Assembly: GCA_016206785.1 (NCBI GenBank)
Contig: JACQQV010000031.1
Coordinates: 35,860-99,859, forward strand
Direction of reading: 5' to 3'
From: Candidatus Omnitrophota bacterium
Lineage (GTDB): Bacteria; Omnitrophota; Gorgyraeia; JACQQV01
DNA length: 64,000 nt
Below are positions 1 through 24,317 of the stretch, piece after piece. Positions within the stretch are counted from its first letter, which is position 1, and each line of letters begins with the position of its first letter. Both the position numbers and the translations under genes were made by a program. The notes beneath the pieces are model-generated. The model made no database searches and was not told the DNA's origin. It saw nothing but the letters and a program-made list of their open reading frames with translations.

Positions 1-1212
<1,212 letters not shown>

Positions 1213-1240
1213 TGGTACCTCCGTTAAAAGTTTACTATAA

Positions 1241-1274
1241 CATAAAAAAGCGCGCCGGTCAATCAAGCGCGCTT
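1241..1274 (-). terminator. Rho-independent terminator downstream of the giant gene
   Basis: Inverted repeat AAGCGCGC(1248-1255)/GCGCGCTT(1267-1274) with an 11-nt loop. On the minus-strand transcript it is followed by CUUUUUUAUG (reverse complement of 1241-1250). Confidence 0.5.
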
Positions 1275-1300
1275 TGAAATGTGAGATTGAATCCTAAAAA

Positions 1301-4300
1301 TTACAGCCCTTTAAGCACCATGGTGGCGATCCGCTTCGCCTCAGCAAGTTCGTTTTGCACCTTTTCGCTTGTCATCAGTTTCCCGGCCTTACCGAATCCC
1401 TGCGTCACCTCGACAAGGAGGAGCTTTGTGGTTGTGTCAAGATCTTCAAGCCGGTCTTCCCTAAGGAGAGACATTTGCGAGGCAAGACTTGTCCCCAGAT
1501 ACACCTCTTTAAGGAAATCGACCGGTGTCTTCAGGGGGACCGTAAAAACCTTCTGCTCATTGATAGAGGAAATAAGGGCTTTGCGGTGGGGCCCAAATGC
1601 GAGAGAAACAGGAGAGAGAAGTCCATGCTTTTCGAGCCCGAACGCTTCTTGATCCGCCGGCGTCAAAAGAAAGACCGCGGATGGCTTTTCAGGGAGTTGA
1701 TCCAAACGGGTCTTGAACCGACCCGCCATCTTGTCGACCAAGGGAGCCCCATAGGCATAGCTCAATTCATCAAAGAGTTTTCTTCCTTCTGGCGTCGAAA
1801 ATTCTGGAGCGGCAAAGAATAAAAACCCTTCTGTCTGTTTTAAAAGGTAGGAAAGGACGTCTGGATTCGATGTTAAGTCCTCATCCAGGAGTCTCGATGC
1901 GCTTAACAACAGGATTGTGGATTGACTGATGTGATCCATCCGGCTTCCAATTTCAAGATGGAGGATGTCTTCCTCAACAGGCATCGGTATCCGTTTCGGA
2001 TCTAATTTTTTATTCTGACGAGAAAAGAGCTCCCGTACCAGGATGGTATAGAGCGTGCGGATCGAACCTCGATGCGCTTCGTCGGTTTTATTGAGTTCAT
2101 CAAGGAGGGGCTCCTCCTCAAACATCTTCGATAGGGTAATTGCTTTGGGACCCACGCTCTTCATAAGCGATGTGACCGCCTCCGCCAGCGAGACCTCTTT
2201 CTTCCCGCCGTCTTGGGCGTAAGATTGGACACGTTCCGCGAATCTGTCATTTTCTGCAAAAATCCAGTCGGGAAGTGGGAATCCTTTATCGACGAATTCC
2301 TCTTTGAGATATTCGGTTCGGCGCTCCGCCTCGGCGCCATAGAAGGCAGCGTCGTATCCGAGGACGGTATCGAGATTCGCACGGATGAGGGCGACGTTCG
2401 CCTTGTCCTCCGCCGTCATCTTCTCCGGTAAAAGATCGTCAAGAATCCGCTCAATTGCGGCACGGGTCGGCATATAACCGAGGGATGTTTCAACCGCCTC
2501 TCCCTTCCCCGTTGTATTCCCCTTGATCCGCTCGGTCGCCCAGATGACCGCAATCGTATTCCATGAATAACCGGGCCATAGGAAATTTCCATCGGCTCCC
2601 TTCTGGAACCAGTTCACATGGAAAAAGAGGGGTTTGTTCTCACCGAGTTTCTCGATCACGGCACGCTGATTGTCCAGATATTCCTTTTCACTGAGTCCAA
2701 AGAAAGGCTTCATCGCCACAGGGTCCGGCTCAACGGCACCCACCTTCACATCACTTGCGGCAGCGGTTGCCTCCCGGATGAGCATAAACTGATCGTAAAG
2801 ACCTGAGTTCAGATCCCGCGACTGATAAATGAGCGGGACCCCTTTGGACATCTTCCCCCCGACGAAGAAGGCATGAACGGTGAGGCCTTTCGGATCGTTC
2901 CATTTTGGCGAACGGTTCGGAACGTTCGTAATCCGGGTGGTAAACCGCGAGTTTGGATGGGCCCATTGGTCCACGTTCGGATGCGTCGCGGGACTTGCCG
3001 GCTCCCGTCTCCAGTTGATCCATCCCTCACCCGTCGGAAGTTCTTTTGTAAGTTTCCTCCACCACACTTCACCCGTAAAAACATTGTAGGCGACATTTGT
3101 AAAGACGGTTCCCGTATTGTCTCCGATCGCCTCCATGGCCACCGCATTGGAACGCTCATTGGTGTCGGGTGCTACCCCAAAAAGCCCACGTTCCGGGTTA
3201 ATGGCATGAAGTCTATGATCCTCTTCATCGACCCACGACCAGGTAATATCATCTCCAAAAAATTCTGTCCCATAGAGATGCTGAAGGGGTGCAGGAACTT
3301 GAAGCATCGCAAAATTGGTTTTGCCTGAAGCGCTCGGTGCCGCATCAAGGATTCCGAAAAGTCCACCGGTTGTTTTGTCACGGAATCCGAGCATCGCCAT
3401 ATGTTCGACAAGCCATCCCTGCTTGGCAGCAAGGTACCCCGCAATACGAAGCGAGACATGTTTTTTGCCGAGGATTGCATTCCCTCCGTACGCCGACCCA
3501 AAAGACCAGACTTCACCCTGATCGACCACATCGACAAAATAGCGATCATCATCTGTCAGTTTTTCAAGATCCCCTGTGGCCTGGACTCCCTCAATAAACT
3601 TTCCACCCTTTTCTTCCAAGGCAACCAACGCCTCCTCGCCCACGATGACCTCACCGACCGCTGCCATAATATCTTGATTGGTGAAAACGTAAGGATTGTC
3701 GGTTAACATCATCATCACTTGAGAAACAGGGGACTTTCTTAGTCCCATGAGGACCGGTACGACATACATCGTCTTCCCGGCATAAGAGCCCTTGACCTTC
3801 GCCTTCACTTCTGGAAGAAATTTCTCCGTGAGTCGATGATTGTTATACCGCCCTTTATCCGCAGGATTACTGGAGAGAACAAAGGTTCTCTTCTCCATCC
3901 GGGCCACATCGTTCACATCGGAGAAGGAAACCGAGGTACCGTTTTTCCGCCGGATGAAGTGCCCCGGACGTACGACCTCTTGGACGGCCTCCGTGAAGGA
4001 GAGGCCGTCGCCCGTAAGCCGCCGGATTTCTACCGCAACTTCTTCTTGCGTCCGCGCCACGCCAGCGATCGCTTCCTGAATGTCGTCCTGATTCAAAATA
4101 ACTTTGATGCTACCGGCGCCGACAAAGTCTACCATCTCCGAAACCCACCCCCGCGCCGCTTCGTTCTGGATTTTGGCTAACTGGATCGCCTGATTCTCTC
4201 TAAATTCTTTCCCACCCCCATCCGCGGCCCTCTTTGGAACATAAACGAGAAAAGCCATGTCCATGATGTTGGTCCCGGTGGGGCCTGTGATGATATGAAT

Positions 4301-7300
4301 TCCCATCTCTTTTGCAAAAGCCCCAGACTTAAAACGGCGAAGAAACTCTTCGGGATCAAGCCCCTTCTTTTGAGCCAAATCTACCGTCTCACTCGTTACA
4401 ACCGCCCCAGCACCCCCCCACCGACCATCCTTCCCATCGGTCGCCCCTGCCAAGAAGGTTGCCTTTCCGAGGTTCCTTTTCTCAAGTTGTAAGGAAGAAA
4501 GGAGATTCGCTACCGTTAAAGCAAGGTGACTATTTCTCCCACCCTCTCCTGCTCCAGGTGGTACCTCCACCTCTGGTTCCCCACCCCAAAGGAGCACGAC
4601 AGGCTCTTTTCCAAGATAGGGGGAGAGGGTTGATACCATTCGATCCGCTTCTTTTTCTACAGATTGGGTAAGGGGCTCGTCAATAATCACTGTCTTGAGT
4701 CCAAAGGAACGAGCCACCTCCGCCGCCCTCTCAAGACCGGGTCTATTTCCAAAGAGGAGCGCTGACTGAAAACGTTTTTGGTCGAGGAAGGTGTCACTAG
4801 GTCGAACCACTTTTTGTGTTTGTTCTTTGATGTTTTGTTCAATATCATCGCGTACCGTAAGAGGAACTTTGTCCCACAGTTTACGTTTTACGAGAATATC
4901 CTTCGCGTCTTGAAAAGTGCTTCTATCCCCAACGGTGTACCCGGAAGCGATATCTTCGAGTCGATCATACGGAACGTCAGACCCAAGGAGATTCACAAAA
5001 TATTTTGCATTTCCACCGAGTTTTAGAATCTCGGTCCGCTGATCGACATGCTTACGGATAATATTTTTGTCATGAATATTCATTCCTGAATCTTCAAGGG
5101 TTTGGTAGAGTTCCCGTAAATCCTTCAATGGAATTTCAGGAACGGGGAGAGCACCGATCGCGCTCCCTCCTCCCGAAATAAGGGTGATCACCATATCCTG
5201 AGGGGTCGCTTTGGCGAGGAGTTTCAATATTGCTTCAGTCCCCTCGGCCCCCTCCAAGCCTGGGGTTGGATGTTGACCGGCATACAGTTGAATGACACCG
5301 ATCTTGCCACGATATTTTTCCTTCTGTTCATGCCCATCGACACTCAACACACCCGCCGTGATCCGGTTCCCAAAAATTTTATGAAGCGCCTCGGCCATCC
5401 CGGCAACCACCTTGCCATATCCAACGACGTAAATATGTTTGACCTCGTTCAAATCATATTCACGTCTTTGGATCGTGAGTTTCTTTGAAAGAGCATCATA
5501 CACGACATTTCTTCTCACCGCATCCGAAGCATTGGCGCTTTGGATCGCCTCAAAGAACATCCGGTTTGCCAAAACCTCTTCAACCGGAACTCCAGGAACG
5601 GGATTCTTGGGAAAGGAGCCATCCAGAATTGCACTTAGGTTTTCAAACGCGATCTCCTGCATCCTGCGGCGGACAGGAATCACCGCGCTTCCTGTATGCC
5701 CTGTGATCTTTACATTGGAAAGTTCAAAAAGACCCTGCTTCGAACTTCCATTTGTATTGCTCTCATCAGTGAGCACATCGAAATGGCCCTGAGCCTCCGG
5801 GTGCTTTTTCAAATGAGCGATCATATCTTCTTCGTTTATAACGCCACCTCTTGAAGTATTGAGGTGGATCGCTTTAGGTTTGGTTTTCGCGAGGAATTCT
5901 CGATTCACCCAATGTTTGGTTTCTGAATTCAGATCAAAGAGGTAAGTGAAGATATCGGGTTCTTTAGCAAGGGTATCTTTATCGACCACTTGAATCCCCT
6001 GTCGAGAGGCGCGCGCGATATTATCGGAATTCTTTTCAAAAGTGAGCATCTTCATTCCCAATGCAGCCGCCCGTGAGGCAACCGCCTGACCGATCCGGCC
6101 GAATCCTGCGATCCCGAGCGTCTGTCCGGCAAGAGTCTTTTCAAACAATGCCCCTTCACGGCCCGATTTTACCCAAAGATCTTCAGGGTCAACAATGGTA
6201 TGGTGAACGCCATCAAGAGGAGTTGTTCCTGGAAGACGAATGACGTAATCTGCTTTCTCACGAAGTTCGTGGAGTTTTGGCACGATGGGAAAGTAGGTTA
6301 AACGAAGTTTCGATTCCTCTTCAGGAGTGAGCCGTTGATCCTCAGGGGCGAAGTAGACAATAGAAGCGATGCCGTGGGCGTTCGCAAATTCTGCAAGACG
6401 CTTACCCACCTCATTCATCCCCACAATCCCAAGAGAAGTTTTGACGCCGACCTCCGGATCGGCTCCCAATTGATCATGAAGAATGGTCGCCTCAGGGCCA
6501 ACACCACATCCACAATACTTCCCATCCCTGACAAACTGGTACATGTCACCCAAACGGAGGGACTGACGCAACAGTTCTCCCCAAAGGATCTCCGCCACCG
6601 CTTGCGGATGTTGGGGAATTGCTGCAAGAAGAACCTCTTCCAATTTCTTCTTTCCAATTTTTTCCTGAGAAATGGAATCGGTAAGGAGGTAGTTTGCGTT
6701 GAGCGCCTTCCCGATATTGAGCTCGGCCATCGCAATCGTTAAGGGGCTCCCGGTAGGCGTCTGTGCATTGGTCACAAAGATCCCCCGCTTCCGCGCCTCT
6801 TCGCGGTCCACATTGTTATACCCGATGCTGAATTGAAGAATCCCTTTTAAATGGGGGGAGGCGTCCATAACCTCTTTGTCAAAACTCAAATTGGTAAATC
6901 CGGTGATGTAGTCATAATCTCCCTTCCGGACAATTTCGAGAAATTGCTTTTGATCGAGGCGTTGATAGTAATCTTCTCCGGCTTTGAAAATTTCAGACCC
7001 GGTCCTCAGGACGTCGACATTAACGTCTCCTCTTTGTCTGTAGAGCTGGCGGACATTCTCATCCAAGGGCTCTATGACCAATACATTTGCTTTTGGATTT
7101 TCAACCCTCGTTCTTCGGACCTCGACTCCCGGCACGACCTCAACGATGGATTCCTCGGTAGGCTCCCGTACAACTTCTCTCCCTCCATCGCGAGAAGCTT
7201 CATAGGTCCCCTGTTCAAAGGAATGGCCTCCTGCACTCGGGTAGAAGCGGGCCATCCGGAATCGGTTCGAACCTTCTTCAATCGGATCAAACCGGTGGAT

Positions 7301-10300
7301 CCCCGTCTCTACAAGAGGTTCTGCGTAAATAGCGACTTCAAAGAGGATTTCATCACCGTCATTGATCACTTGATGAACCGGATTGATGACTCGCGTAATT
7401 TTTGAAATACTTCCCTTCCGAATGGATTCTTCCGAGACCTTTTCCAGAGAGACAATGTTTCCTGCTGTTTGTGAAACCATACGAAAACGCCTCTCCTTCC
7501 CACGCCCTTCACCGACGATGCAGAAGACACAAGCATTTCCACCATGATTATGAATAGGATTCCCTTGACCGGGAAGATACGCGATAATGCTTAATTCAAA
7601 ACGCTTTTGGGGATCGAGGTGAATCACAACGCGGGGGTAATCGGTAGGACCTTTGAGGCCTTGGACCTTTCGCTTGGCAATGATATCGAGGATGCCGATC
7701 TCTTTTAAGAAATCTGGGGAGCGCGGAAGGAGTTCGTCGGTTAAAATCCTTGCCAGGGTATCTGCAAGACTCTTCTGTTCTTTATCCGATAACTTCTGAC
7801 CTTTCTTTAAAGAATCTACCTCAGCCGTCACACGATCCACAACCGCCTGCGTCACAGCGCCATATTTTGTCCCCCCATCCGTTCCAGATTCATACTTGGC
7901 CGATTTTTCCGCCGCCTGAGAGGCCTTCCACTCTTCCACCGTCGGAAGTGGGAAGAAGGCATCGAAAAGCGGTTTCACAATTCGCCCATCCTGAATCGCC
8001 TCGAGAATTTTTTCTTTCTCGGGGCCAGGATCTTTATCGGCATCATTGAATCCAACTTGAAGATCCCGACGGATGAATTCATAAAGCGGTCGTGTGTTCC
8101 CAAGGAGGTGGCCTCCCCCTTGTTGCAAAGCTCTTTCTTTAGCCTGAGGGAGTAACAGATCAAGACGCTTCGCAAGAAGTTCCATAAACACCTTATAATA
8201 TCCAGCGACAGCCTTGGCGTCATTGACAAGGTTGACCTCCACAGACCCAACCGCTTTCGGATCGCTCCGAAGAATATCGTCAATTTCGCCCGCCAGCGGA
8301 TCAAAAAGCGGCTTATATCTTTCAGAAGAAGTAAATGCATAATAATAAGGAGGGATCGTTTTCGCTTTCTTGACCAAGTGCGCGGTCATGAGAGGTGCGA
8401 TGTCCTTCCAATTCGTTACGACACTTGGCAGTGTCTCCTCAACGGTTTTTGCAATCGCTTCCTCTGTGGCGTTCTGGTAGATCCGTTCAATATTCCGGAG
8501 GTCAACCGCCTGAGCCGTGGAATAGAGATGATTTACAAGCATGAGTTGAAGAACTCCAACTGCCTTTTGCGTATACCGCGCAGAAATCAGGGCCAGCGAA
8601 TTGACGTCTTGATTCCCCAGCTCTGCATTTTTGACGTGAGTGGTCACTGGATTCGCCAGATACTCCAGCTCCGATTGGTAACTCGCCATTCCGATTTCTG
8701 AACCCTTATCCCCAAAGTCGAGGTTCGGGTCAGATCCTGCGAGATTTTTAAGGAGGCCGTTGTTGTAGGCGTCGCTGTGAAGTTCGGTATATTGGGCAAA
8801 AAGAATCTGGCCGATCGCGGAGAGGGCAAGACGTGTATTCTCCATGGCGACACCGAGGGGTGTTCCCTGGAAATTCCCTCCGTGAAGCACGCGGTCTCCT
8901 TCAACATCAATAATCGGATTGTCGGTCACAGAGTTCATTTCGGTCGTCACCGCTTCGGTTGCCGCCAAAACGACCTCGAGTTGCGGCCCAATGGCTTGGG
9001 GAGCGGTCCGAATTCCGTAACGGTCTTGCCGCATCCTCCCCCTTTCAATCTTTTCTTTCCCGTCCAGCTCATCCCGTGAGAGCCGACTTCCCTTAAGAAG
9101 ATGCAGAAGGTTTTCACCCACTTCAATCTGTCCTAAGTGTGGTTTGATGGCTTGAATGACCGGATCGTAACTTTGATTCGTGCCGATAAGCGTTTCGACG
9201 CTCAAAGCGGTTGTCGCCTGGGCAAGCAGAGCGAGAATGTTGGCATCATACAACACGTGGGTTGCCAAGGCATTGGCGACAGAGGTGCCATTGACAAAAG
9301 CAAGGCCTTCTTTAGGCCCAAGTGCAATCGGTTCAATGCCGGTGATCTGAAGTGCTTCTCTGGCTGAAATTTCTTTTCCTTGATAGCGTGCCTTTGCCGT
9401 CTCTTTCCCCATGAGCACCGCAAGCATGTGAGAGAGCGGTGAAAGGTCGCCGCTCGCCGTGATCGAGCCTTTATTGGGTACAACAGGGGTAACCCCCTTG
9501 TTAAGGAGTGCCACAAGATTTTCCAAAACAAGCCAACGGAGTCCCGAATATCCTTTAATATTGGAATTGGCGCGGATGAGCATGGCACCACGCACCTCAT
9601 CCTCCGGAAGCGTCGGACCAAAGCTCGAATTCAAGAAACGGATCAGTTCTGCCTGCAGTCTTTGCACTTCATTTGTCTGGGCGCCCGCGCTTCCGCCATA
9701 TCCTCTGTTGACGCCATAAATATCCCTTCCTTCGGCAATCGCTTTCGCAAGCCATTCCACAGAAGCATCGACCTTTGCTCGGACCTTTAGAGAATCCGTC
9801 AAAGAAACCGGTACACCATGCTGAGCCACTGCGGCCACATGGGGAATAGTAAGGTCTTCCCCGGTGACCACAACTTTATCGGTACGTTTCAATCCTTCAG
9901 CAAGGGCAAGTACAAGATCCCGATGCTTCGTCTGTTTGACAATATTTCTGAGTCCTTTCGTGTCTCGATAAGTTTTCTCCACGAGTTGCGCTTTTTCTCT
10001 TTCAACTTGTTTTTCTCTTTCCTTCCGGGTATACAATTCTTCAATCTGTTTTGCGAATCGCTTTTCAATCTGTGGACGAATGAGAGAGCCTTTTGGTGAA
10101 AGCGGAAGCGGTTCTTCGCCTGGCGCCATAATCACAATATTTTCCCGACGGACCCTTGAATAATCAAGGAAGTATTGATTAACATCCTCGAAGAGCCCCC
10201 AGATCGCTTCCTCAATGTCCATCCACTGTTTTCCTTTGAAAGCCGCATAGTTCGGTTGGACAATGGCGATATTGTAGGGTCTCAAATGCCCCACCAAGGC

Positions 10301-13300
10301 AGCCTTTTGAATCAAGGGGCTGTCTTCAAGCGCCATTTCAATTGGAAGCGGATTTGTCTTTTCGCCTGTCGGATGTGCAAAAATTTCGTCGTTCCGACCC
10401 ACATAGACATATCCCCCCTCAACCTCTTGGAAAAGATCTCCCGTATGGAAACGTTCAGGTTCTTTAAAGACATCTTTTGTCGCCTCTTCATTTTTAAGAT
10501 AGCCGGCGGTCACGGTTGGACTATTGTCAAGGACGAGCTCTTTCCCTTCAAGACCCGGGGTAGAAACAAAGTCGGCGTTCACCCCAGGGATCACCCGAAG
10601 AGTCCGCCAATCGCGCTTTTTCGGGTCCCCCAAGAAGATCGCGCCTCCCACATCGGTCATCCCCTCGCCTTGGATGACATTTACCCCCTTCCCTTGGAAA
10701 TATTTTCCAGTCGCTTCTGAAAGAACAACGCCACCTGACATGATAAATTTAAGGCCCCCCAATGTATCAAGTATCGTCGGATCTTTCTCTGCCATTGCCT
10801 GGAATCCTTCGAGCATCCACGGAACGGTGTAGAAAACATTCGCCTTGGTTTCTCTTAAGGAGGCGAGGAGTTGATCGGGCGTCGGCGGTCCCGGTTTTAA
10901 CCGTGGGAAGGCATATTTGGCACCGACGTACAGATTGCCCAAAAACTCAAAAGGGAGCCCCATGACATGAAAGAACGGAAGCCAACCGAGGGTCATATCT
11001 TCGTCGGTAAAATCACCCTCCCAGGCGAGCCGCGAGGCCTCCCGGTTATAGAGGAGATTCTGATGGGTCAGCGGAACTCCTTTTGGCAGTTTGGTGGTTC
11101 CTGAGGTATAAAGGATCAGTGCAACGTCCTCCGGTTTTATATCAACAGGCGGGATTTCGACAGGGGCCTCACCCTCTTGCCAAGTCGCTAAAGAAATTTC
11201 ACCCTCCTGAAGTTTTTCAGGAGGAAGTGCATCCAGTACGAAGATTTTTTTGATGTTTAGATTTTTAGATTTAAGGTCACGGGCGGCCTGAAGGAAAGGA
11301 CCTGCGGAGACAATAAGGGAAGTCGCATCAGAATTGGACACCATATGTTCAAGCACGGGAGGTGGCGCACGAAAGCTCATTGAGACAACCGCCCCTCCCA
11401 ATCCCCAAACCCCCATCGCGGTTTCCACAAATTCAGGACGATTCGGTGAAAGGAACGCGATCCGATCTCCCGGCCGGACCCCTTCGGTATAAAGCGCTTT
11501 CTTCAGCCGTGCCACCTCTTTGTCAACTTGATTGAAGGAGACCTCTTGGTATCCCTGCGTCGATGGAACGACGAGAAATCCCCGATCGCCATATCTCTCC
11601 ACCTGCATCGCCCAAAGATCCGGAATCACTCCCGTCTTCAGGGTCAGTTCTCCAAGGCGAAGGTTCCGGTAGGCACCGTCTTTGGCGAACTTACCCGCAT
11701 GTTTCTTGATGATTTCCTGATGGAGCGCCGGTTCAATATTTTTCCCCGAAATCATCAAAACGACGGTCCTGGCGTTTTCAAAAAGATCGCGATGTGCAAG
11801 AAGTGCTGCCACAGAAAGGACCCCCGCTCCTTCCGCCACAATCCCTTTTCCTTGATAGTGCTCCTGGTGAAGGAGTGCGATGGCGCGTTGGATATCCTCT
11901 TCCGAAACTGACACGACACTTCCAACTTTTTCTTGAAAGATCTTAAAGGGGATGACGCCTGGGCGTTTGACCTTCGCGCCGTCCGCAAGGGTCTCCGGGG
12001 AATCAATTTCAACGATCTTTCCGCTTCTCAGAGAACGAAGCATGCTATCTGATCCGGATGCCTGAACCCCGATTGTTTCTGTCCGCGGAGAGAGGGCACG
12101 GGTCACCGTCGCAATTCCGGCCAGATACCCTCCGGTTCCTACAGGCGCAACGATAACGTCGGGAGTCACTCTGTCTTTTTCGAGAATCTCCAGCGCAACA
12201 GTCCCTTGTCCGGCGATGACCCAAGGTTCAACGGGCGAGATGAAAATATTGCCGCGCCGGAGCGCCTCGTTATACCAGGCTTTCCGGAGGACATCGTCAA
12301 ATTTACCAGTGACCGTTTCCAACCGTCCTCCCAGTCTCTCGATCGCCTGACGCTTCGTAGGAACGATATCCTTCGGAACAAAAATCAGATTGTCGACTCC
12401 AAAGCGGTTCGCAGCAAGGACGACCCCTTGGGCATGATTTCCCTGGGAAGGGGCGATCACGGTGATACCCTTCCGATCAGCGAGCGGAACATTTTCAAGG
12501 ACATGAGCCACTTTCGCAAGTGCCCCGCGCCACTTGTATGAACCGATGGAGGACTCGCTGTCCAGCTTCAGGTAGATGCGTCGGTCGGTTCCTTTTCCAA
12601 AGAAATATTCGCTCAGAACCGGCGAATAAATGAGGGGCGCTTCTTCCAAGTAAGGGCCCATGAGACGATAAACTTCCCGAACCCGATCGATATCCACGTA
12701 TCCGTAGCGGGGCTCAAGACGTGTCCACCGATCCTCTGAAACCGCATGGGGGGAATCGGGAAGGGTGGCAACTTCTTTCAAGGTTACGAAGACTTTCGCA
12801 AGCCGCAGATCGATAAAGTAAGGATCGAGGGTTTCAAGATAGGTCAGGTCGATCGTCTTTTCCGGCACCACGCCCCCCTCCTGCGTCAGAAATCTCACGA
12901 TCTGGATTATTTCTTCGTAAAGGGCTTCCTCATATTGGGTCGGGTCTGACACCTGACGGGACTTAAGGTAAGCAAGTTTATCGATCGGCTCCAAGAGTCT
13001 CAAGGAACCGTTGGGGGTATCCTTGCTCCGACTCATTGTGCCGATGATACGGTCCTGAGCCACCTGACCATCCTGCACGATTTGGAAAACGACCTTCCCG
13101 TCTCCTCGCATCTGGATGGTAAAGGTGACAAATTCATAAGGCCTATTCCCCACGTTGGATTCGAGGAGTCCTGCCACTTCCTGAATCGTTTTTCCTCCAC
13201 CGTCGCGGGCCATGGCAGTGCTGACTAAAAACATTCTTCCTCTCCCTGTCACATCCCCCGAAGGACCGATTGAGACTTCATTAGCCCAACTGCTTCTTCC

Positions 13301-16300
13301 TGTAAAAATATTTCCTTTCCGATCGGTAAGAATACGTAGTCTCCCGTTGACAATCTCAACGTCTGTAATCTTCGGGCCTTTCTTTCCAGAAGGAGGTCGT
13401 GCAAATCGAAGAACAACCACTTCATCTTCTGGGGTCACCACCATGGCCAAAGCGGGATCTAATGCAGAGGTCTTTCTGGATAATCCTCTTATCGGAAAAC
13501 GAATGGGATTCTGCCAATAACTATCTTTCACAATCGCGACCCACTCTTCTCCTGCAAAGATCTTTGTCCCCCCTGTGGCAGGCCTCACTCCTTCTTCCCC
13601 TTGGACTCTGCTTTCATAATAAATAAAAGGCCAACTCCATTTTCGATGCTCCATTTCAATAGAAGCACCTCTTTGAGAAAGGGTCCCAGGATCTGTGTCA
13701 AATGTGGAGTGCGTCAATATCAAGGGAAAACTCTCTGGAGAAGAGATGCTGTCTTGAATTTTTTCTTCAAGGAGGTCATGAAGATGACTGTGTGGAAGGA
13801 CCTGCTGCCCAAATGCGTAGGAAGGGACGTCGACACGGAGTCGATCTCTAAATTGTTCAAGATTTAACCCTAGATTAAAGTGGTATCTGACACCCCCTCC
13901 AATATCTTCTGCAAGGAGAATCCCCTCTTGGACCAAAGGTCTAAGTGCTCCTAAGATCTCTCCTTCGCTCCTGATTTGTTGAAAGACCAAGGCCTCGCGC
14001 AGCCCACCATCCTTCGCAAACTGCGGGGGGGCTTTTTCCACTGCCACAGGCTTCCCGGCCTTTGCAAATGCCGTCGTGATCATGGCGACGACACGTTTCA
14101 GATTTCTGGCGATATCCTCTTCGCTGATCGGGACATTGGGATTGTTCAAATCGGCGGCCAGGTAATTTTGCGCAAGCATCCTGTCATGGATGGAAACGAA
14201 ATCGACCTGATCCGCATAGGAAGTTGCAAAAAGGTATTGGTCGGGATTGTCCGCGCGGACGCCAAGTTTGAATCCCTTGTGACTCCGCCTTAAATCGGTC
14301 TCCTCCAAAAGATCATGGGCGATTTTTAAATGAGTCACGTCACGGACATCGGTGAGTTGTATCAAAATGTTGTCAATGCCACCTCTCCGCGCCTCCTTCA
14401 CCGCCTCAAACTCCCAGCGGAGAAGAGTCCGGTATTCATCACTCGCAACATACCGGTAAAATCCTCCGAAACCGAGGGGGGTGTTTTCTTCCTTCTTGTC
14501 AAAAACAGTTCCATACCGAAGGGAAAGATATCCTTCGCTATCCAAATCGCTGGTCTGATACACAAGCTGCTCGCTCTTTTTCGACGAGACCGCTTTGGCA
14601 AAGAACGCAATGAGTTGGGTGCGGTAGTAATCCTCCGCTTTGATGAACCCCTTCTGGCCGATAAGCGTACGAAGGGTGGTCTGAATCTTCCGGATACCTT
14701 CCAAGTCCCTATTCAGTCTTGTGAGGAGTGCCGCCTTTTCATTGGCTATCTGAAGAAGTTCAATCCTTTTTTGCTCCTGCCCATCACCCAACGACTTGAG
14801 ATTGCGTTCGGCAGCAATTCGATCTTCCCTGGTTGTTTCAATTTGATGCAAGATTTCTTGTTCGATCTGATGGAGTTTCCCGCTGTCATAATAAAGGAAA
14901 GCGAGGGGGTGAATTTTCAGGATGTCACGGTAGAAATCGGAAGCCCGTATCGTCTGGATCTCAAGCCGCTCCGCGGCCACTTCTCTTTCGGGGATTTCGA
15001 TGGCGTCAGGCGTGGTCACCTCTCCACGGGTCAAAGGAAGTCTCCCTTCATAAATTTTTCCGGTCTTAAAATCAGCAGTAACAATTTGTCCTTCCTTCAA
15101 GTCTCCTCGGATACCGACGAGGACCGGTTTCCCTTGCGCTTCAGCTTCTCGGAACCAGGGACGGTCAAGGTCTTGGGCCTCAAAGAAAAATGCCCCCGCT
15201 TGATTGACAACACCGTTGGGAACGGCGATCCTTTCGGAACCCTTTCGAAATAGAACAAAATCGCCGAGTTGGATCCGACGGAGATCTTCCGGATCTTTGA
15301 CCACGACCATGTGACGGTCCCCCGCACCCTGTGTGGCAAGCGTTTTCCCAAAAGCGACCTCATGCGCTTCACGAAGGGATGCTTCTGAAATGGAAGAAAG
15401 ATTTAATTCCGCCTCGGAAATCAGTTTGACGGCTGCAAGGAACCCACGGACGTCTGTTCCGGTTGAATCAAGGAGTACGGCAATCTCGCGGGCCGCCTGA
15501 AGGTTATACCCCGGTTCGCTCGGATTGGTGAGTTTGATGATCGCCTGACCGCAGAGACCGCAGGTAAACTTCACGTTGCGCCTCTGGCGTGCTTCACGTA
15601 CCGCATACACCACATGACGGATGCTATTGACGATAGCAGGATGCGATTCTTGGAAAAGGGCTTTCACCAAAGGTTCTTCACGCCCCGCGCGGCGTGTTGT
15701 TTGTGTTAAGTCATTGGTTCCGAACGAGAAAAAAACATCCTTTCCGGTTTCCTTCGCGTATTGTGCCAAAAGATCCGCAAATTCATCCGCCTGAATCACG
15801 TTTGAAGGGAGCTCAACCATCATGCCGACGGTATGAAGCGGCATTTTGACTTCCTGGAAGCGTTTAAGACCTTTCCGGAGTTCTTCCGGCGTCCGGACAA
15901 AGGCGAAGAAGGCCCCAATATTGGTATAACCGGCCTCGTAGACCCGCTTGAGCGCTTCTAATTCCAAACCGAGAACTTCACGGTTCTCTTCCTTTAATAG
16001 CCAACCTGTTCCACGGTCTCCCAACATCGTTGCGCGCTCACGGGAACCGAAGACACCGCCCCCTGTAATCTGGAGAAGCTCGTTCTGTTTGAAATCGTTG
16101 AATCGGTAGAGAACTTTTTGATGAATCCCATTTGCCGCCGCCATAGAGGCGAGACCTTCATAGAATTTTCGGACGTAATATTCACGGGCACTGGGATAAC
16201 CGGCCACACGCCTCTCGATTTGCGCAACCAACTGGGGATGGGCACGGAGTTTTTCAACGTCTCCGCGCTCATCCATAGTCAGGGAGGTGTTGGAATCTTT

Positions 16301-19300
16301 TTCGAGTCCCTTCAGATTGTCGTAGGCGAGGATCGCCCTCGGATGAATTCCGACGCCGACAAGAATAAATTCTGCCCGGGCAAGACTGATCCCGTAAAAA
16401 GAAGGGTAAAGGGCAAGGTTGGAAACTTCCTGCATCGCCCGGGGATTTGCTACAATCAGTCCCGGTTTTGTGAAATGGGTCTCCGGAAGTTGGTCCACAT
16501 CGATCTCAACCTGCTCGGTTTCGATGGGGAGTGCTCCTTTGTAAATCCTCCCCGTATTGGCATCGACCGTGACCCAGTCATCTTCGGTAAAAAGATAGTC
16601 CCTCGCCTCCCTGTAGTGCGAAGGGGCTTCCTGCCGAAGTCTTTCCAAATCTCCATTAATTCCGGTGATCGTCGCCAGATTCAACTCGCGGCTCACAATT
16701 GCGGCATGAGAGGTGTCTCCTCCCTCTTCAGTAATAAAGCCGCGGACCCCCTCGGTTTTCATGAGCGGTTCCTGTCCGGGGGTCGTAAAGTCTGTCACAA
16801 TGATAGTATCCTCCCCAGACTTTCGGAAGTCAGCGACTTTGTTGCGGATACGGTCCTCTTCCCGGGCATAGTCTCCCTTGAAACTCCTCGCCTCGCGATC
16901 CAGAACGATGACCCGTCCGGTAAACGCATTCCGCCCCTGAACGCCTTTGACCAAAAGTTTCCCTGCCCCTTCCGCCTCCTCCGCCACCTCCTCCGGAACA
17001 AAAGTTCTTTTAATGGAAACATTCCGCGCCCCGATGTCGGAAGGGGTGGTAACGGCTCGCGACTGCACAAGACCCACGGCGGAGCGTTCCATCGCCCCTT
17101 CCATATCGCGGATCCCTCCGTAAAAATCGGTAGCCGCTTTGAGTTGTCGGGTAATTTTGATGATCTCTTCGTCGGTTGCAGCGAATTGATTTCTTTTTTC
17201 AGGAGGGACATGGGTCCAAATGAGCCGCTGTTTCGGATCTTCGAGAAGCGCATGGATCGCGTGGGTCAGTTGCAAAAAGTTTTCTCGCGGAAGGACAAGA
17301 TGTTTTGAAACGGCTGCCGGTAGATGAAGTCCCTCTGCAATCGCCTTCTCGGCCCTCTCTTCAATCTCCTCGTGGATGCGCACAATGGTCCGAAGAAGGG
17401 GAGCGATCTGATTCCCGTTATAAATCTTTCCAAGGAGTTCAGGGGAAAGGGCGACCCCCCTCGGCTGGAACTCTTGCGCGATATAACGGCGGACCGCTTC
17501 CATGAGTTGTGCAAGCTCCTCTTGGGTGATTCCCGCCTTCTCAAGAATCTCCTCCAGATACACCATTTGAGTCCGCTTCGCCCCAAGCTCTGCTTCAATG
17601 ATATTGACATGTTCCCGACCCTCTGCATCCGTGAAGAGATGAACTTTGTAGGCGTCTGGAACCACCATTCCCCCCACAATCGCTTCTCCCAACCCGTAAG
17701 AAGTGGTAATCCGGAAAATCCGTCCTTCGGTGAGTCTTTCTTCGGGGGTATCCTGAAAGCTCCTCGCCGTGAAACCGGTGGTCCGATCGAGGCTGAAAGC
17801 CACAAGGGAGACGTCGCTTCGAATCATTCTTTGAATGGGAACTGCAAGAGAAAGGCGCGTTGGATCAATGTAAGGCTTTCCCGCTTCTTCCAAAAGTTTC
17901 AAGAAACGGTCCGCAATCCTTGGGTGCCCGGTCCGGATTTCCACCAGGGCGTTCCGCATCTTTGCATGGGGAACATACGTTCCCTTTTCAAGATTTTCGC
18001 CGATTTCCCGTACCTGTTGCCGCGGCGTCTCCTTCAATGCCGAAACAAGCTGAGAAAGATCCTGCGGGGTTTCAATGGCGCTGATGAATGCAAGGAAGAT
18101 TTGCGTATCCCGGTAGCTGATGGCGTTCGGTCTAAAAAGACTTGCCAAGACATCCCGATATCGCTCGAGGACAAGGGAGTACCCCCTCACATTCAAAAAG
18201 GTCTCCTGTTGCCCGGCACTGGAACCGGAGGAGATCTCCACTTTCAACCCCGAGCGGAGCGGCTTGGAAGGATCAATCTCCACATCTTCGACGGTGCCGG
18301 AGCTTCGTACGGCGACAGGGAGATTCATATCGGGATAACTGTTTTCCCGGCTGAGGACCATATAATTTCCGACAACCTCCTGTTCAAGATCTTCCGGCAT
18401 CACCGCCTGCTCAATCGCCTTTTGAATCGCCTCTGAAGCATCCTTGAGGGCATGAGGGTCGGTGACATCTAAATCGGAAAGGAGCCGACCGATGGTATCC
18501 CTGATTTCAGGATTTGCATCGAGGAAACGCTGGTATCCTGCTGCCGTGACAATGAATCCTGGTGGGACAGGAACCCCATGACCAAACATTTCCCCAAGAT
18601 TCGCACCCTTCCCGCCCACAATCGCCATATCATGACGCCCTACCTCTTCAAACCACACCGTCAGTCTTTGAGAAATATCTTCAGCCCTTTTGCCTTCGCC
18701 ATCTCTGGCCGCGAGACCCCATTGTTCTCCTCGGGGATGGTTTAGAATGCGCACTTGCGATAAAGTCCTCGGCAGCCTTCCGAAAGCCACCTCATTGACA
18801 AGTTGAAATTCGGCCTTCGATTCTCTATGGTCGATTTCAAACTCTATCACCCAAGAGTCTGCATCCGCTCTTCCCATTTCCCGTAATGCGATGCCCCGAT
18901 GATGACCTTCCGCGATGAAGAAACGGGCCCGTTTGGGTTCCGGCTTAATCACAATAAGCGCTTCACCTTCGCCCTGTTTAATTTCTTTTTTACGTACCTC
19001 AATTTCTTCTCGAAAAGCGGTTGGGGCGGCGGGCGCCAACACACCTAACGAGAGTGTACGACGATAAACCTTCATGGGTACCCCATGAATTCTTTCAAAA
19101 TCTCTTGCTAACCGGTATGCCAAATCTTTGGAGTAATCCGCAACGGGAATTCGGTAAACGCTTCCTCCCGGACGGATTCCCAGTATGATGCGGCGGTCGC
19201 CAATATACAAAGAGACCGCATCATCACCCTTAAAGTATGTGGGTTCATGAATAAATAGTGCGGAGAGCGAGGGATCCTTCGCCCGCGCCTTTTGGAGTGC

Positions 19301-19558
19301 ACGGAGGAGACCCCATCGGCTGGCACCTTTCTTCTTCGCGCCCGTGAGAATTGTTGAAACTTTTCTTAGGAGGGGGCCCGAAAGCTCGTTAAAGAGTTGT
19401 TGCTCGCCTCCGTCCTTTGCGCCGATGACGCTGTGGGTGCGAAGATGTGAAGAAGAAGTGAAGATATCCTGCAAGGCATGTGCAGGCAGGGTATTGGTAC
19501 AAAGGAATGCTTGAAGAATGATCCAACTCGAAACTTTAATCCAAGTTTTAGACTTCAT
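1301..19558 (-). CDS. Giant (6085 aa) signal-peptide-bearing multi-enzyme-domain fusion protein
   Basis: A single stop-free frame spans 18,258 nt. The N-terminus [28 protein letters not shown] looks like a signal peptide. I checked the motif positions against the DNA by back-translation: GGDTSHAAI at 16697-16723, SYKWRGA at 12521-12541 and KGSITASGD at 9446-9472. The sub-domains are listed below as separate features. Confidence 0.85.
   Translation of the reverse strand: [6085 protein letters not shown]
1304..2458 (-). other. C-terminal region (~385 aa) of the giant protein with no recognisable family
   Basis: I recognised no known motifs in this region. It is mixed charged and hydrophobic, and it ends ...[11 protein letters not shown]. 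Confidence 0.3.
2459..4171 (-). other. GTP-dependent phosphoenolpyruvate carboxykinase-like domain (aa ~5130-5700), paralogous to pckG at 55807..57579
   Basis: [38 protein letters not shown] aligns with [37 protein letters not shown] in pckG. The P-loop is [13 protein letters not shown], with Ser in place of the pckG Cys. Other matching segments are [32 protein letters not shown] and [19 protein letters not shown]. Confidence 0.8.
4259..5521 (-). other. Glycerate 2-kinase (DUF4147 + MOFRL family) domain (aa ~4680-5100)
   Basis: [54 protein letters not shown] and [10 protein letters not shown] match the conserved motifs of GckA/TtuD-type glycerate kinases. Confidence 0.65.
5609..6991 (-). other. 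D-isomer-specific 2-hydroxyacid dehydrogenase (glycerate dehydrogenase/hydroxypyruvate reductase-like) domain with a ~170-aa insertion (aa ~4190-4650)
   Basis: The catalytic domain is [42 protein letters not shown]. The NAD-binding motif is [33 protein letters not shown] and ITGHTGSA carry the catalytic His. Confidence 0.7.
7289..7636 (-). other. Cysteine-dioxygenase-like cupin domain (aa ~3975-4090)
   Basis: [25 protein letters not shown] parallels the CDO type-I motif IHDHxxSHCFxKxLxGxLxExxF. Confidence 0.45.
8279..9856 (-). other. Aromatic amino-acid ammonia-lyase (HAL/PAL family) domain with an intact MIO-forming Ala-Ser-Gly triad (aa ~3235-3760)
   Basis: [15 protein letters not shown] carries ASG at aa 3368-3370. 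[26 protein letters not shown] and GIRTAPQ are typical of histidine/phenylalanine ammonia-lyases. Confidence 0.75.
10019..11521 (-). other. Adenylate-forming (AMP-binding, acyl-CoA-synthetase-like) domain (aa ~2680-3180)
   Basis: Core motifs are present: [14 protein letters not shown] (A3), [24 protein letters not shown] (A7/A8) and [15 protein letters not shown] (A10 PxGK). No carrier-protein domain follows. Confidence 0.7.
11609..12631 (-). other. PLP-dependent (fold type II) threonine/serine dehydratase-like domain (aa ~2310-2650)
   Basis: SxKxRGA with the PLP-binding Lys in [15 protein letters not shown]. It also has [11 protein letters not shown], the glycine loop [12 protein letters not shown], and [11 protein letters not shown]...[11 protein letters not shown] at the C-terminal side. 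Confidence 0.7.
14009..15361 (-). other. Degenerate second PEP-utilizer half (mobile-domain-like plus TIM-barrel-like) lacking the catalytic His and with TNDLTQ replaced (aa ~1400-1850)
   Basis: [12 protein letters not shown]...GDFVLF...[15 protein letters not shown]...GKPVLVGI...[10 protein letters not shown] parallels the first swivel domain, but GGDTSHAAI is replaced by [30 protein letters not shown] parallels [10 protein letters not shown]. A coiled-coil-like segment at aa 1550-1640 lies between them. Confidence 0.45.
15524..18661 (-). other. Complete pyruvate-phosphate-dikinase/PEP-synthase-like module (aa ~300-1345): ATP-grasp N-domain, phospho-His swivel domain, PEP-binding TIM barrel
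   Basis: [14 protein letters not shown] matches the PPDK_N nucleotide-binding motif. [21 protein letters not shown] matches the PEP-utilizer mobile domain with the catalytic His. [10 protein letters not shown] plus FTCGLCGQ matches the PEP-utilizer TIM-barrel motif with the catalytic Cys region. The domain order is the same as in PPDK/PpsA. Confidence 0.75.
18839..19201 (-). other. ParB/sulfiredoxin-like nuclease-fold motif region (aa ~120-240)
   Basis: [17 protein letters not shown] resembles the ParB-like nuclease domain signature DGHHRlxAxxxxG. The assignment is tentative. Confidence 0.25.
19475..19558 (-). other. Predicted signal peptide of the giant protein (aa 1-28)
   Basis: Positively charged N-terminus (MKSK), then a hydrophobic core WIILQAFLC, then an AHA-like cleavage motif. 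Confidence 0.5.
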
Positions 19559-22500: not shown

Positions 22501-24008
22501 ATTTGTTCCCGGCCGACGTCACGGACACTGACAATTCCTCTTTTCCAATCCCGGAGTTGCTGAGACAGCTCGTGCTCAGGGTCTTCTGGAGGGGCAACGG
22601 GGTACGGTTCCCCCGTGATACCCGAGAAAGCACGGTTTTCGGACGCACCATAGAGTGCACCTTCTTTAGGAAGAGAAATGGTGATGTCTCCTCCCTCCTG
22701 GCCACGGGCCAATACGATATCAAACCCTGCGTTTGAAACGGCGGCAATAGCAAACGTTGAGGCATTCCCACCCCCATAAAATTCCTTTTGCGCCTGGTTG
22801 ACGAGTTTATTTCGGTCGATAGAAGAGGGGAGCTTCTGTGAAACCTCCTCCAAAAGCCTGTCTCGGAAACGGATATACTTTCCATCATAGTGGTCTGGAT
22901 GTCGCAATCCGTCTTTGATCAGATCAAAGTTATGCTGCCGAACTGCATCCAAGGTTTCTGTCTCTTCGAGAACTTTTAAAGTTTCCCGGACCAACTTTTC
23001 AGCAATGCCCCGCACTGCAGCAAAGGTACTATCCTGGGAGATCAGGAGGCCATGGGTATTATGCCAATCTTCATAATCCTGAACGATCCGAAAGGCTCTC
23101 TGCACCGCTTTCGTCAAATCAACGGAACCGTCAGACTCCCTCGTCGCCATAAGTGCTACCAAATTTGCAAAAATTTCAGAGTCGGTCTGCCCTTTGAAAT
23201 CGGAAGCGAGGCGAAAGGGGCTTTGGGTCCCCGGTCTGGTACTATTCAGCATGCGGTCTTTAAAAGCATCCGCCCCTAAGAAATTCCCATTGTGGACAAG
23301 TGCAACTTGAAATCCGATTTCATCATTGCGCGCCAGAAAAGGATGGGCATTTTCATCAGAAATCACACCAACAGTCGCCCAACGGGTATGCCCGATCCCA
23401 ACCTGTTCAAACTTCACAGTCTCAAGATTGCCGCCCTGCTGTGTAATGATAGCCTGATCTTTTCGTGGGTCGATAGAGACATTGGAAGCCGGAACATGGT
23501 AGAGCCGGGCAATGTCACTTTTCAGGCCCTGATGGAGTTCTGTGCGGATTTTTTCCCTGAGGACCTTCGCATTCCCGGCATACTTGGAAACATGAACAAA
23601 ATAGGCCGCTTTCCTGTCCGGGCCGGGGATTTTGGTTACAATTGCCTGACCGTATCCGTCGTAACCGCCACTTAACAGTTTTTCAGTCTGTGTCTGAAGC
23701 ACTCCAATGGTATCCTGCACGCCAGTGACAAAGCAGAGACGGCACTCTACAGGAGATTTCCGTAGATTCAGAATGTCGTACCCCCGCGCCAGTGATCCGA
23801 ACCGTTTTGCGAAGTCTTTCGCGAGCGGCTCCTCAAGAGAAACGCCTCTTAATTCATCGATTAATTGTTTGCGGTTTCCGTCCTGAGAGTTCATGAGGGT
23901 TGGAGTCCGGAGATGAGAAACTGTGTGGGGGCGAGAAGCCCATGCAACAGTAGAAAAGGTATTGGAAAAAAGGAAAAGTTGTACGGTAAGCACTGCGACG
24001 ATTTTCAT
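19593..24008 (-). CDS. Second giant secreted protein (1471 aa): GlmS-like (class-II amidotransferase-like plus two SIS domains) fused to a ~500-aa Ala/Gly/Val-rich unknown C-terminal region
   Basis: The track ORF 19593..24134 reads through the leader. The start is refined to ATGAAAATC at 24006-24008 ([24 protein letters not shown] signal peptide), with a GGAGGTGAG RBS immediately upstream. Its stop lies only 35 nt before the 6085-aa gene start. Confidence 0.75.
   Translation of the reverse strand: [1471 protein letters not shown]
21129..23756 (-). other. GlmS-like region of the 1471-aa protein (GATase-like aa ~85-470; SIS1 ~560-760; SIS2 ~780-950)
   Basis: [21 protein letters not shown] aligns with [21 protein letters not shown] in glmS (39373..41208). 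The SIS motifs are [12 protein letters not shown] and [41 protein letters not shown] aligns with FLGRGVNFPSALEGALKLKEL in glmS. The N-terminal nucleophile Cys position is internal (ECRLCFVTG), so it is probably not an Ntn-type active amidotransferase. Confidence 0.65.
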
Positions 24009-24100
24009 CTCACTCACCTCCAAATTCGGCTGGGGGTCTTTTGGGTCTCCACCTCTCACCTTGGGAAGAAGGAAGCCAAAGCCCCCGTCGCCGAATCGAA

Positions 24101-24137
24101 ATAAAAAACCAGGTTGCCCTGTTCCTTTAGGCAACCC
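24101..24137 (-). terminator. Intrinsic-terminator-like hairpin plus U-tract inside the 5' leader of the giant-gene operon (attenuator candidate)
   Basis: On the minus-strand RNA the structure is GGUUGCC-uaaaggaacag-GGCAACC followed by UGGUUUUUUAUU. On the plus strand the stems are GGTTGCC (24113-24119) and GGCAACC (24131-24137), with the A-tract at 24101-24110. It sits about 95 nt upstream of the start codon at 24008 and about 180 nt downstream of the predicted promoter. Confidence 0.5.
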
Positions 24138-24317
24138 GGCTGTCTATTCTAGATCCAAGGTTTTGCAGTCCCACCCTCACGGATGGTTTGCTCTTATCTA
24201 GTGAACCATTCGGCTAAAAACAAATTCCGTTTCAAAAGAACTAAACTTATTAACCATTTAAAAAGGCTTAAGTTACGAACGAAAAAAAATACATGGACTC
24301 GTTCCCTTTTGTAACAA

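Follow-up and report, generated by a model that had tools for sequence, protein, structure and literature searches.

A putatively exported giant protein of an Omnitrophota bacterium built from enzyme cassettes that are separated by a lineage-specific junction motif

Giant multi-enzyme proteins of uncultured bacteria from the Planctomycetes-Verrucomicrobia-Chlamydiae (PVC) group have been described before, but their working mode is not understood. For the Omnitrophota giants ("Archaeovorins"), West-Roberts et al. (2023) reported that the parts predicted to be extracellular often contain PPDK_N and sugar-phosphate enzymes, described signal peptides and SecA domains, and suspected cleavage, with "information about cleavage points" lacking (10.1101/2023.11.21.568195). 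A "multi-enzyme metabolic cluster" class was defined as well, most members of which carry signal peptides or transmembrane helices (10.64898/2026.06.07.730766). Here we analyzed 64,000 nucleotides (nt) of a Candidatus Omnitrophota bacterium (GenBank assembly GCA_016206785.1, contig JACQQV010000031.1, positions 35,860 to 99,859; hereafter, the window), which encode a 6,085-amino-acid (aa) protein termed here the giant. Like the known Omnitrophota giants, it combines many enzyme Pfams on one chain with an N-terminal signal peptide, a PPDK_N-type dikinase, and central-carbon enzymes that are predicted to be exported. In contrast to these proteins of at least 10 kaa (thousand aa), it comprises 6.1 kaa, and domain scans revealed neither transmembrane helices nor a C39/S8 peptidase nor HEAT, TPR, or dockerin repeats. 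With this length, it stays below the 10,000-aa catalogue threshold and the 30,000-aa threshold for a "giant," but exceeds the 5,000 aa that define a "huge protein" in PMC11573180. Junction motifs, cassettes of consecutive enzymes, nonorthologous refilling of a slot, the C-terminal domain, and the riboswitch detailed below are described in neither 10.1101/2023.11.21.568195 nor 10.64898/2026.06.07.730766. The locus is a small, readable 6-kaa example showing the borders of the units, their logic, and their regulation. We propose, with a probability of about 0.5, that the giant belongs to the Omnitrophota/PVC giant type as a Sec-exported multi-enzyme protein composed of cassettes, and that it is probably cut at its junction motifs.

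The giant is encoded by a single uninterrupted open reading frame (ORF) of 18,258 nt (1301..19558, (-) strand), whose ATG start codon lies a few bases 3' of a Shine-Dalgarno-like AGGGGA sequence. The intact product has a predicted mass of ~670 kDa and is tiled by 14 Pfam families from 8 enzyme types, none of which is dominant and whose envelopes together span 62% of the chain. A Sec-type signal peptide could be read directly from the translation at aa 1 to 28 (19475..19558, (-)); it begins with MKSK, continues with a hydrophobic core, and ends with A-H-A followed by LQ. Positive charges of this segment are confined to its N-terminal side, and beyond it no hydrophobic or transmembrane helix was found in the giant. 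For comparison, one of its modules, a long-form dehydrogenase with an insertion of ~250 aa, was searched against 1.84 billion representative proteins, which yielded ~20 full-length matches, mostly proteins of 1.7 to 5 kaa with signal peptides. N termini with the same succession of basic (n), hydrophobic (h), and AxA-containing (c) regions are present in the upstream neighbor gene and in relatives P0001 to P0004, P0007, P0008, and P0010. Because signal peptides are conserved family-wide, we infer that the giant is exported. The signal peptide is followed by a conserved leader (aa 29 to 51; 19406..19474, (-)) of the form ..SSSHLRTHSVIGAK-DGG, which is 33% identical to the leader of the upstream neighbor and 34% identical to that of P0003. 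Many family members exhibit a short motif ~10 to 20 residues past the signal cleavage site (TLAP.S, YLAP.[ST], NLATPS, or HLRT.[ST]). Many C termini of the family end with AA, those of the window's clade with GL, and both the N- and the C-terminal motifs could be sorting signals.

Nine module borders of the giant are marked by the motif A-[KR]-D-G-G-x-[KR], located at aa 49, 286 (as DGE), 1850, 2119, 2627 (as DGA), 3894, 4124, 5113, and 5783. A typical example is RAA-DGG-GKE at the border between glycerate kinase and phosphoenolpyruvate carboxykinase (PEPCK; 4208..4228, (-)); the other junctions are located at 19400-19420, 18689-18709 (DGE), 13997-14017, 13190-13210, 11666-11686 (DGA), 7865-7885, 7175-7195, and 2198-2218 (all (-)). 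All seven DGG tripeptides of the giant fall outside Pfam envelopes, five of them at most ~35 aa past the C-terminal end of an enzyme domain, and the pattern A[KRQA]DG[GAE].[KR] was observed 6 times compared to 0.014 times expected from shuffles. No motif was present at the border between the ligase and the phenylalanine ammonia-lyase (PAL), nor between the dehydrogenase and glycerate kinase. As the codons of the motif differ synonymously among the giant's junctions, it is the peptide, not the DNA, that is constrained; a DNA-level origin of the motif, such as a recombination scar or repeated DNA, was ruled out by this synonymous variation. Internal Shine-Dalgarno sequences or translational restart at the G-rich DGG codons were considered and rejected, since they are not consistently followed by a start codon in frame, and the junction motifs used by other lineages do not resemble Shine-Dalgarno sequences.

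In the relatives, corresponding sites carry other motifs. P0003, the closest relative, has DGG at 4 sites compared to 1.1 expected, all 4 of them between domains, and two of its junctions (PEPCK_ATP|PGK and PGM|C-terminal domain) have no counterpart in the window. At a site 10 to 25 residues upstream of the homologous long-form dehydrogenase, the motif is particular to each lineage: SRDGGRE in the giant, ARDANGGK in P0003, RESSTGK in P0002, RSEVR in P0016, RSEMR in P0013, NSPSG in P0010, PSAASSS in P0011, AAGAEE in P0069, and DAAMAGGK in P0008. The relatives' own motifs also recur along their chains and top unbiased k-mer scans, as seen for RSEAR in P0013 (11 copies; P of ~1e-30) and SPAG/SPSG in P0010 (10 copies); SSAG, DAAM, and RSE[VM]R are likewise enriched in the respective relatives, whose junction motifs include SSAGK. 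The codons of RSEAR vary at their third positions. Taken together with the analogy to polyproteins and MARTX toxins (see below), lineage-conserved motifs that differ between lineages, and cassettes that behave as independent evolutionary units, these features led us to infer cleavage at the junctions.

The motifs delimit nine cassettes (S1 to S9; all (-)). S1 (aa 52 to 285; 18704..19405) belongs to no recognizable family: nothing was found in Pfam, NCBIfam, PDB, or homologue searches, and the N-terminal 300 aa of the giant are without detectable homologues; a suspected similarity of S1 to ParB found no support on checking. S2 (aa 289 to 1849; 14012..18694) is a phosphoenolpyruvate (PEP)-synthase-like dikinase with an ATP-grasp domain, a mobile His domain (GGDTSHAAI), and a PEP-binding barrel (PPDK_N, PEP-utilizers, and PEP-utilizers_C at aa 313 to 1339), to which a second PEP-utilizers_C barrel is added at aa ~1599 to 1840. 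A preliminary description of the window had labeled this module pyruvate,phosphate dikinase (PPDK); NCBIfam favored PEP synthase (PpsA, NF005057; 562 bits, cutoff 598) over pyruvate,phosphate dikinase (TIGR01828; 105.6 bits). S3 (aa 1853 to 2118; 13205..14002) could not be assigned to a family, with zero matches in Pfam, NCBIfam, and PDB. In S4 (aa 2122 to 2626; 11681..13195), ~170 unclassified residues precede a Thr/Ser ammonia-lyase-like enzyme dependent on pyridoxal phosphate (PLP; PALP at aa 2307 to 2605), in which the PLP lysine (GSYKWRGA) and the GTGG loop align and whose top PDB match is the catabolic threonine dehydratase 2gn0.

S5 (aa 2630 to 3893; 7880..11671) contains two enzymes, an acyl/aryl-CoA-ligase-like adenylating enzyme and a plant-type PAL. 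The ligase (aa 2651 to 3179; AMP-binding and AMP-binding_C_3) has feruloyl-CoA synthetase 8wev and 4-coumarate-CoA ligase (4CL) 3a9u as top PDB matches. The PAL module (aa ~3209 to 3867; 7958-9934; Pfam Lyase_aromatic at aa 3236 to 3703) exceeds the TIGR01226 equivalog cutoff in NCBIfam (636.6 bits compared to 519), and its best solved relative is parsley PAL 6f6t (452 bits, residues 53 to 704 of 716 matched). Of the alternative labels histidine or phenylalanine ammonia-lyase given in the preliminary description, only the latter was thus borne out. The module retains the Ala-Ser-Gly (GSITASGDLSPL) that forms the 4-methylideneimidazole-5-one (MIO) prosthetic group, as well as an FL pair (ELIRFLN), which we take to be the Phe-Leu selectivity switch. 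It represents the long plant/fungal type, uncommon among bacteria, that has an additional C-terminal domain, and it sits behind a ligase resembling 4CL and feruloyl-CoA synthetase. S6 (aa 3897 to 4123; 7190..7870) is a thiol-dioxygenase-like cupin of the cysteine dioxygenase (CDO)/3-mercaptopropionate dioxygenase type; its match to CDO_I at aa 3986 to 4091 is weak (19.8 bits in the whole protein, 25.2 bits on the isolated segment), and the metal-binding His residues of thiol dioxygenases align.

S7 (aa 4127 to 5112; 4223..7180) again combines two enzymes, a long-form D-2-hydroxyacid dehydrogenase (2-Hacid_dh at aa 4190 to 4654) and a glycerate 2-kinase (DUF4147 and MOFRL at aa 4664 to 5100), with ~10 aa between them. 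The dehydrogenase, which carries the ~250-aa insertion, resembles glyoxylate/hydroxypyruvate reductases, which are also its best solved relatives; its Arg-Glu-His triad (R444/E473/H495, module numbering) and the GFGRIG NAD site are invariant, and it scored 171 bits in NCBIfam compared to an equivalog cutoff of 455. The kinase covers the DUF4147 (171.5 bits) and MOFRL (94.4 bits) profiles in full and does not reach NCBIfam equivalog cutoffs, with 1x3l (residues 10 to 437 matched) and 2b8n as best solved relatives. S8 (aa 5116 to 5782; 2213..4213) is a GTP-type PEPCK (PEPCK_N and PEPCK_GTP at aa 5188 to 5751), with 472 bits compared to the NF003253 cutoff of 504 and Pfam domains well above their thresholds. 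A canonical stand-alone GTP-PEPCK is encoded in the same window (55807..57579, (+); 901.5 bits compared to the cutoff of 504). The two are 38% identical, and the motifs SGKTN (P-loop), GDDI.W, YGGN..LGKK, and HPNSRFT align between them. S9 (aa 5786 to 6085; 1304..2203) is a conserved C-terminal domain ending with KGL, which is 31 to 34% identical to the C termini of P0003 and of gene A on contig L010 and ~34% identical to that on contig L011; just two further fragments were found among 5.8 billion proteins. It had no match in Pfam, NCBIfam, or PDB, and AlphaFold2 on a 4-sequence alignment gave an unusable mean confidence (pLDDT) of 44. In NCBIfam, all modules of the giant except PAL fall below their cutoffs. 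Active-site residues are nevertheless retained in the dehydrogenase, PEPCK, dehydratase, cupin, and PAL, and the modules have the appearance of divergent paralogues that are still active. The preliminary description had recognized the identities and order of the modules between 2459 and 12631 (aa ~2310 to 5700), which agree with the Pfam order and with the single ORF.

Comparison with P0003 (2,981 aa, contig L010) indicated how such cassettes are exchanged. Both proteins are 64% identical over 1,241 aa spanning the cupin, dehydrogenase, and glycerate kinase, and the alignment ends directly past the shared junction AADGGGKEF. In P0003, the following slot is occupied by an ATP-type PEPCK without detectable similarity to the GTP-type PEPCK of the window in this comparison, followed by a DGG junction, a PGK fused without motif to a phosphoglycerate-mutase (PGM)-type histidine phosphatase, another DGG junction, and the C-terminal domain. 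The order cupin-[hydroxypyruvate reductase plus glycerate kinase]-PEPCK therefore recurs on an independent contig, and as a nonorthologous PEPCK refills the same slot, the presence of either type behind glycerate kinase points to selection on function. Fusion of the long-form dehydrogenase directly to glycerate kinase was also found in the distant P0011 (junctions S[SA]ASS), and in P0010 the dehydrogenase is followed by a PfkB-family kinase. Since the motif-free fusion across ~10 aa is conserved in P0003 and P0011, the adjacency of the reductase-type dehydrogenase and glycerate kinase is not coincidental, as had been suspected, and the succession of glycerate kinase and PEPCK noted along with it is also conserved in P0003. 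Judged by their nearest families, the two-enzyme cassettes hold consecutive steps: hydroxypyruvate reductase and glycerate kinase, ligase and PAL, and, in P0003, PGK and PGM. The ligase, PAL, and cupin had earlier been placed outside the C3 scheme, as pointing to amino-acid-derived chemistry; the ligase and PAL do follow a scheme of their own, forming a phenylpropanoid-type pair within one cassette.

On contig L010, the corresponding region consists of two genes whose boundary coincides exactly with the PAL|cupin junction. Gene A ends with PAL, ATDGGTK, the C-terminal domain, and KGL, and only 1 nt separates it from P0003, which has a signal peptide and a leader of its own. Contig L011, from a close relative of the window organism, shares the ligase-PAL part with the window at 92% identity; there, PAL is followed by DGS/DGG junctions, directly by a C-terminal domain, and then by icd-mdh-sucCD. 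Given these two arrangements, the chain of the window represents an "A" chain and a "B" chain that are fused at a junction. Modules of the wider family are mixed (PCMT, amylase, HATPase, GT2, HD, helix-turn-helix [HTH] repeats, ELFV dehydrogenase, and SecA), so that the C3 theme is a property of the window/L010 sublineage only. SecA domains, known from the published Omnitrophota giants, occur in relative P0013 on contig L009, and none is present in the giant. Upstream of this RSEAR-containing relative, L009 encodes (25-7227, (+)) a 2,400-aa protein with ~10 tandem Xre-like HTH repeats (KSGDRLK.LREQLGM...) and RSEAR/RAEVR junctions. P0004, P0005, P0006, and P0009 contain two tandem long-form 2-hydroxyacid dehydrogenase modules and a large common domain, with no junction motif detected, while P0007 and P0016 have PCMT (protein-L-isoaspartate O-methyltransferase) modules near the long-form dehydrogenase.

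The giant lies between an upstream family member and genes of central metabolism. As noted previously, icd-family and mdh genes follow downstream: the isocitrate-dehydrogenase-family gene (133..1266, (-)) is located 34 nt past the stop codon of the giant, and the ATG of the malate dehydrogenase gene, of which the first 45 codons are in the window (1..136, (-)), overlaps the icd stop codon at 136-134. This icd-mdh(-sucCD) arrangement is syntenic in three loci (window, L010, and L011). The upstream family member (1,471 aa; 19593..24008, (-); ATG at 24008) consists of a signal peptide, an SHLRT leader, a divergent GlmS-like module, one MDGGRK junction, and a C terminus ending with RGL; beyond the shared GL ending, its C-terminal domain has no detectable relation to that of the giant. 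The putative nucleophile Cys of its GlmS-like module is situated ~88 residues from the ATG at 24008, and an Ntn amidotransferase would need N-terminal processing for activity. A canonical glmS (39373-41208, (-)) is present 15 kb from this gene. With canonical PEPCK and glmS genes in the same window, the modules are divergent, accessory paralogues and do not represent the housekeeping pathway of the cell.

Upstream of this gene, in the 5' untranslated region of the operon, we detected a c-di-GMP-I (cyclic diguanylate) riboswitch aptamer (24127..24202, (-); RF01051, 52.5 bits compared to a gathering threshold of 35, model positions 1 to 87). It is placed between a strong promoter-like site (24318..24346, (-); TTGACA-17-TATACT with extended TG, 11/12 matches) and the start of the upstream family member. 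A terminator hairpin (24096..24143, (-); 13-bp stem followed by UUUUUUAUUU as U-tract; -26.9 kcal/mol, z = -4.65) directly follows, and its 5' arm overlaps the 3' strand of aptamer helix P2. The combination of riboswitch and overlapping terminator suggests induction of the operon by c-di-GMP; the element is predicted to be an ON switch, in which termination would be prevented by the bound ligand. Typical targets of c-di-GMP riboswitches are surface, secreted, or motility functions, and for this reason the riboswitch goes better with the signal peptide than with a housekeeping C3 pathway. The preliminary description had read the module content as C3/PEP-pyruvate metabolism in partly pathway-like order. 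While the conserved reductase-kinase-PEPCK block supports this in part, an ordinary C3 pathway is probably the wrong biological frame, since a Sec signal peptide and a preceding c-di-GMP riboswitch, in addition to a canonical PEPCK elsewhere in the window, do not fit an ordinary cytoplasmic C3 pathway. Contig L011 carries a c-di-GMP-I-GGC aptamer (8805-8955, (+)) downstream of sucD and not before the giant, where the next gene is sensor-histidine-kinase-like by eye. Directly upstream of the riboswitch operon, an HscB-like J-domain cochaperone with an N-terminal CxxC...CxxC extension is encoded (24436-25152, (-)).

As the sequence shows, the giant consists of a signal peptide, a conserved leader, and nine cassettes, the last being the conserved C-terminal domain ending with GL, and a cassette contains one enzyme or two enzymes of consecutive steps. 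On paper, the cupin-[hydroxypyruvate reductase plus glycerate kinase]-PEPCK block would lead from hydroxypyruvate to 2-phosphoglycerate and from oxaloacetate to PEP. In the proposed reading, the junction motifs would be recognition sites of a lineage-specific protease, and if they are taken as such, the giant would be a polyprotein from which cassette-sized enzymes are released once it has been exported. The operon (GlmS-like member, giant, icd, and mdh) would be switched on at the level of transcription by c-di-GMP via the 5' riboswitch and terminator, and the accessory enzyme copies may be used in a c-di-GMP-controlled, surface- or contact-dependent lifestyle instead of in central metabolism. 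A bolder generalization, which we consider tentative and rather unlikely, would be a category of bacterial chromosomal "metabolic polyproteins": chains that are exported and cut at lineage-specific motifs (DGG here; RSEAR, SPAG, and SSAGK elsewhere) by a coevolving protease, and that deliver, in a c-di-GMP-controlled manner, complete, cofactor-dependent pathway fragments (hydroxypyruvate to 2-phosphoglycerate, oxaloacetate to PEP, and Phe to cinnamoyl-CoA) outside the producer's cytoplasm, the destination being, e.g., a prey cell, a host cell, or a shared compartment. In that case, the junction motifs would be the missing cleavage map for Omnitrophota/PVC giants. Lineage-specific motifs offer predictions testable by proteomics and also a way to split larger giants for structure prediction, and should it be true that the enzymes act outside the cytoplasm, this would be a new way to deploy enzymes of central metabolism.

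Several known systems share parts of this organization. MARTX (multifunctional autoprocessing repeats-in-toxin) toxins are large secreted carriers with conserved ends and variable, strain-specific enzyme or effector modules, which are released by cleavage between modules. The giant would work similarly, but it is not a member of this group: RTX/GD-rich repeats, an InsP6-activated cysteine protease domain, and a type I secretion signal were not detected in it, and its cargo consists of metabolic enzymes instead of toxins. Viral and retroelement polyproteins likewise comprise several complete enzymes in one ORF with a short junction motif that is conserved within and differs between lineages. 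In contrast to these, the giant is chromosomal and encoded beside the replication origin and housekeeping genes, no embedded protease was found, and cleavage is predicted. S7 corresponds to the pair of GhrB/HprA-type hydroxypyruvate reductase and MOFRL glycerate 2-kinase of the serine cycle and glycerate pathway in families and in the order of consecutive reactions; it differs by being fused within one cassette of an exported giant, with the dehydrogenase carrying the ~250-aa insertion and falling below equivalog cutoffs. Rosetta-stone fusions of central-metabolism enzymes (e.g., PGK-TIM in Thermotoga, eukaryotic AROM and CAD) also unite consecutive steps on one polypeptide; unlike the giant, they are cytoplasmic and lack a signal peptide, a repeated junction motif, and rapid cassette turnover. 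Literature searches revealed no report of a comparable polyprotein or junction motif from bacteria.

A number of observations weigh against the proposed reading. Bare DGG occurs only 7 times in the giant compared to 2.3 expected, and in an unbiased scan other k-mers rank above it; the case for junctions therefore depends on position, sequence context, and the relatives. Control by the riboswitch was seen in the window only: none was detected before P0001 or P0002, and the 5' ends of the L010 and L011 loci are missing. For the dehydrogenase, ligase, and cupin, which all score below equivalog cutoffs, substrates are deduced from the nearest families only. Moreover, domain and family scans revealed no peptidase family in the giant, its neighbor, or the rest of the window, which would also suit an exported chain that remains uncleaved, like beads on a string, with the motifs serving as flexible spacers or as docking motifs for a chaperone, translocase, or scaffold, and also as places of recombination. 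Junctions indeed match the points of gene split or fusion in L010 and L011, and the SecA domains of some relatives might engage the repeated motifs. A plain spacer, however, would not need a lineage-specific, exact pentapeptide kept 11 times with synonymous codons, and the fact that consecutive enzymes are left unseparated, while unrelated neighbors are always separated, suggests that the cassette is the functional unit; we therefore regard an uncleaved chain as improbable. Similar doubt applies to a cytoplasmic or membrane-tethered metabolon, in which the N-terminal segment would anchor or target the nascent chain and C3/C4 acids would be channeled alongside Icd, Mdh, and SucCD. Two points in its favor are also objections to export: there is no obvious supply of cofactors outside the cytoplasm for chemistry that depends on ATP, GTP, NAD(P)H, CoA, and PLP, as the modules require nucleotide and nicotinamide cofactors, and the tight operon link to cytoplasmic icd-mdh-sucCD, syntenic in three loci, argues for an intracellular role. 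Intact catalytic residues and a functionally coherent cassette content are compatible with it as well. Conversely, n-h-c signal peptides with AxA sites are conserved over very divergent members, with positive charges on the N-terminal side only, canonical cytoplasmic PEPCK and GlmS are already present, and the operon is predicted to be under control of c-di-GMP, which would be unusual for an operon of central metabolism.

That the chain merely collects arbitrary captured enzyme genes, in an order that resembles a pathway by chance, appears very unlikely. The wider family does carry unrelated modules, and the content shifts between close relatives; yet the fusion of hydroxypyruvate reductase and glycerate kinase is found in three proteins, the PEPCK slot was refilled nonorthologously, PGK and PGM were added in P0003, and the ligase is paired with PAL. 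Even less credence is given to an artifact, i.e., a chimera due to misassembly or a pseudogene in decay that was taken for a single ORF. Such an origin could be suspected because the PAL|cupin fusion exists in the window only and the window stems from a metagenome assembly, but the 18,258 nt are free of stop codons, the ratio of nonsynonymous to synonymous substitution rates (dN/dS) between the giant and L011 is ~0.20 (over 1,099 aa at 92% identity), the junction codons are not repeated DNA by which an assembler could be misled, and the flanking synteny is conserved.

The remainder of the window includes further regions of note; no rRNA was found in it. The carAB-pyr operon is interrupted by genes of unclassified function at 32168-33406 (-) and 34925-35704 (-), between carB and carA and between carA and pyrC; of these two inserts, one is a member of the TIGR00375 family (189 bits, below cutoff), and the other is a 259-aa ORF with no matches. 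Positions ~46,600 to 54,500 represent a chromosomal origin region, with dnaA, dnaN, gyrB, and gyrA on the (-) strand and yidC, mnmG, parA, and parB on the (+) strand, and a DciA gene follows dnaN in the source contig. The sign of the GC skew flips near 52 kb, and a 950-nt gap at 49205-50154 is a candidate oriC.

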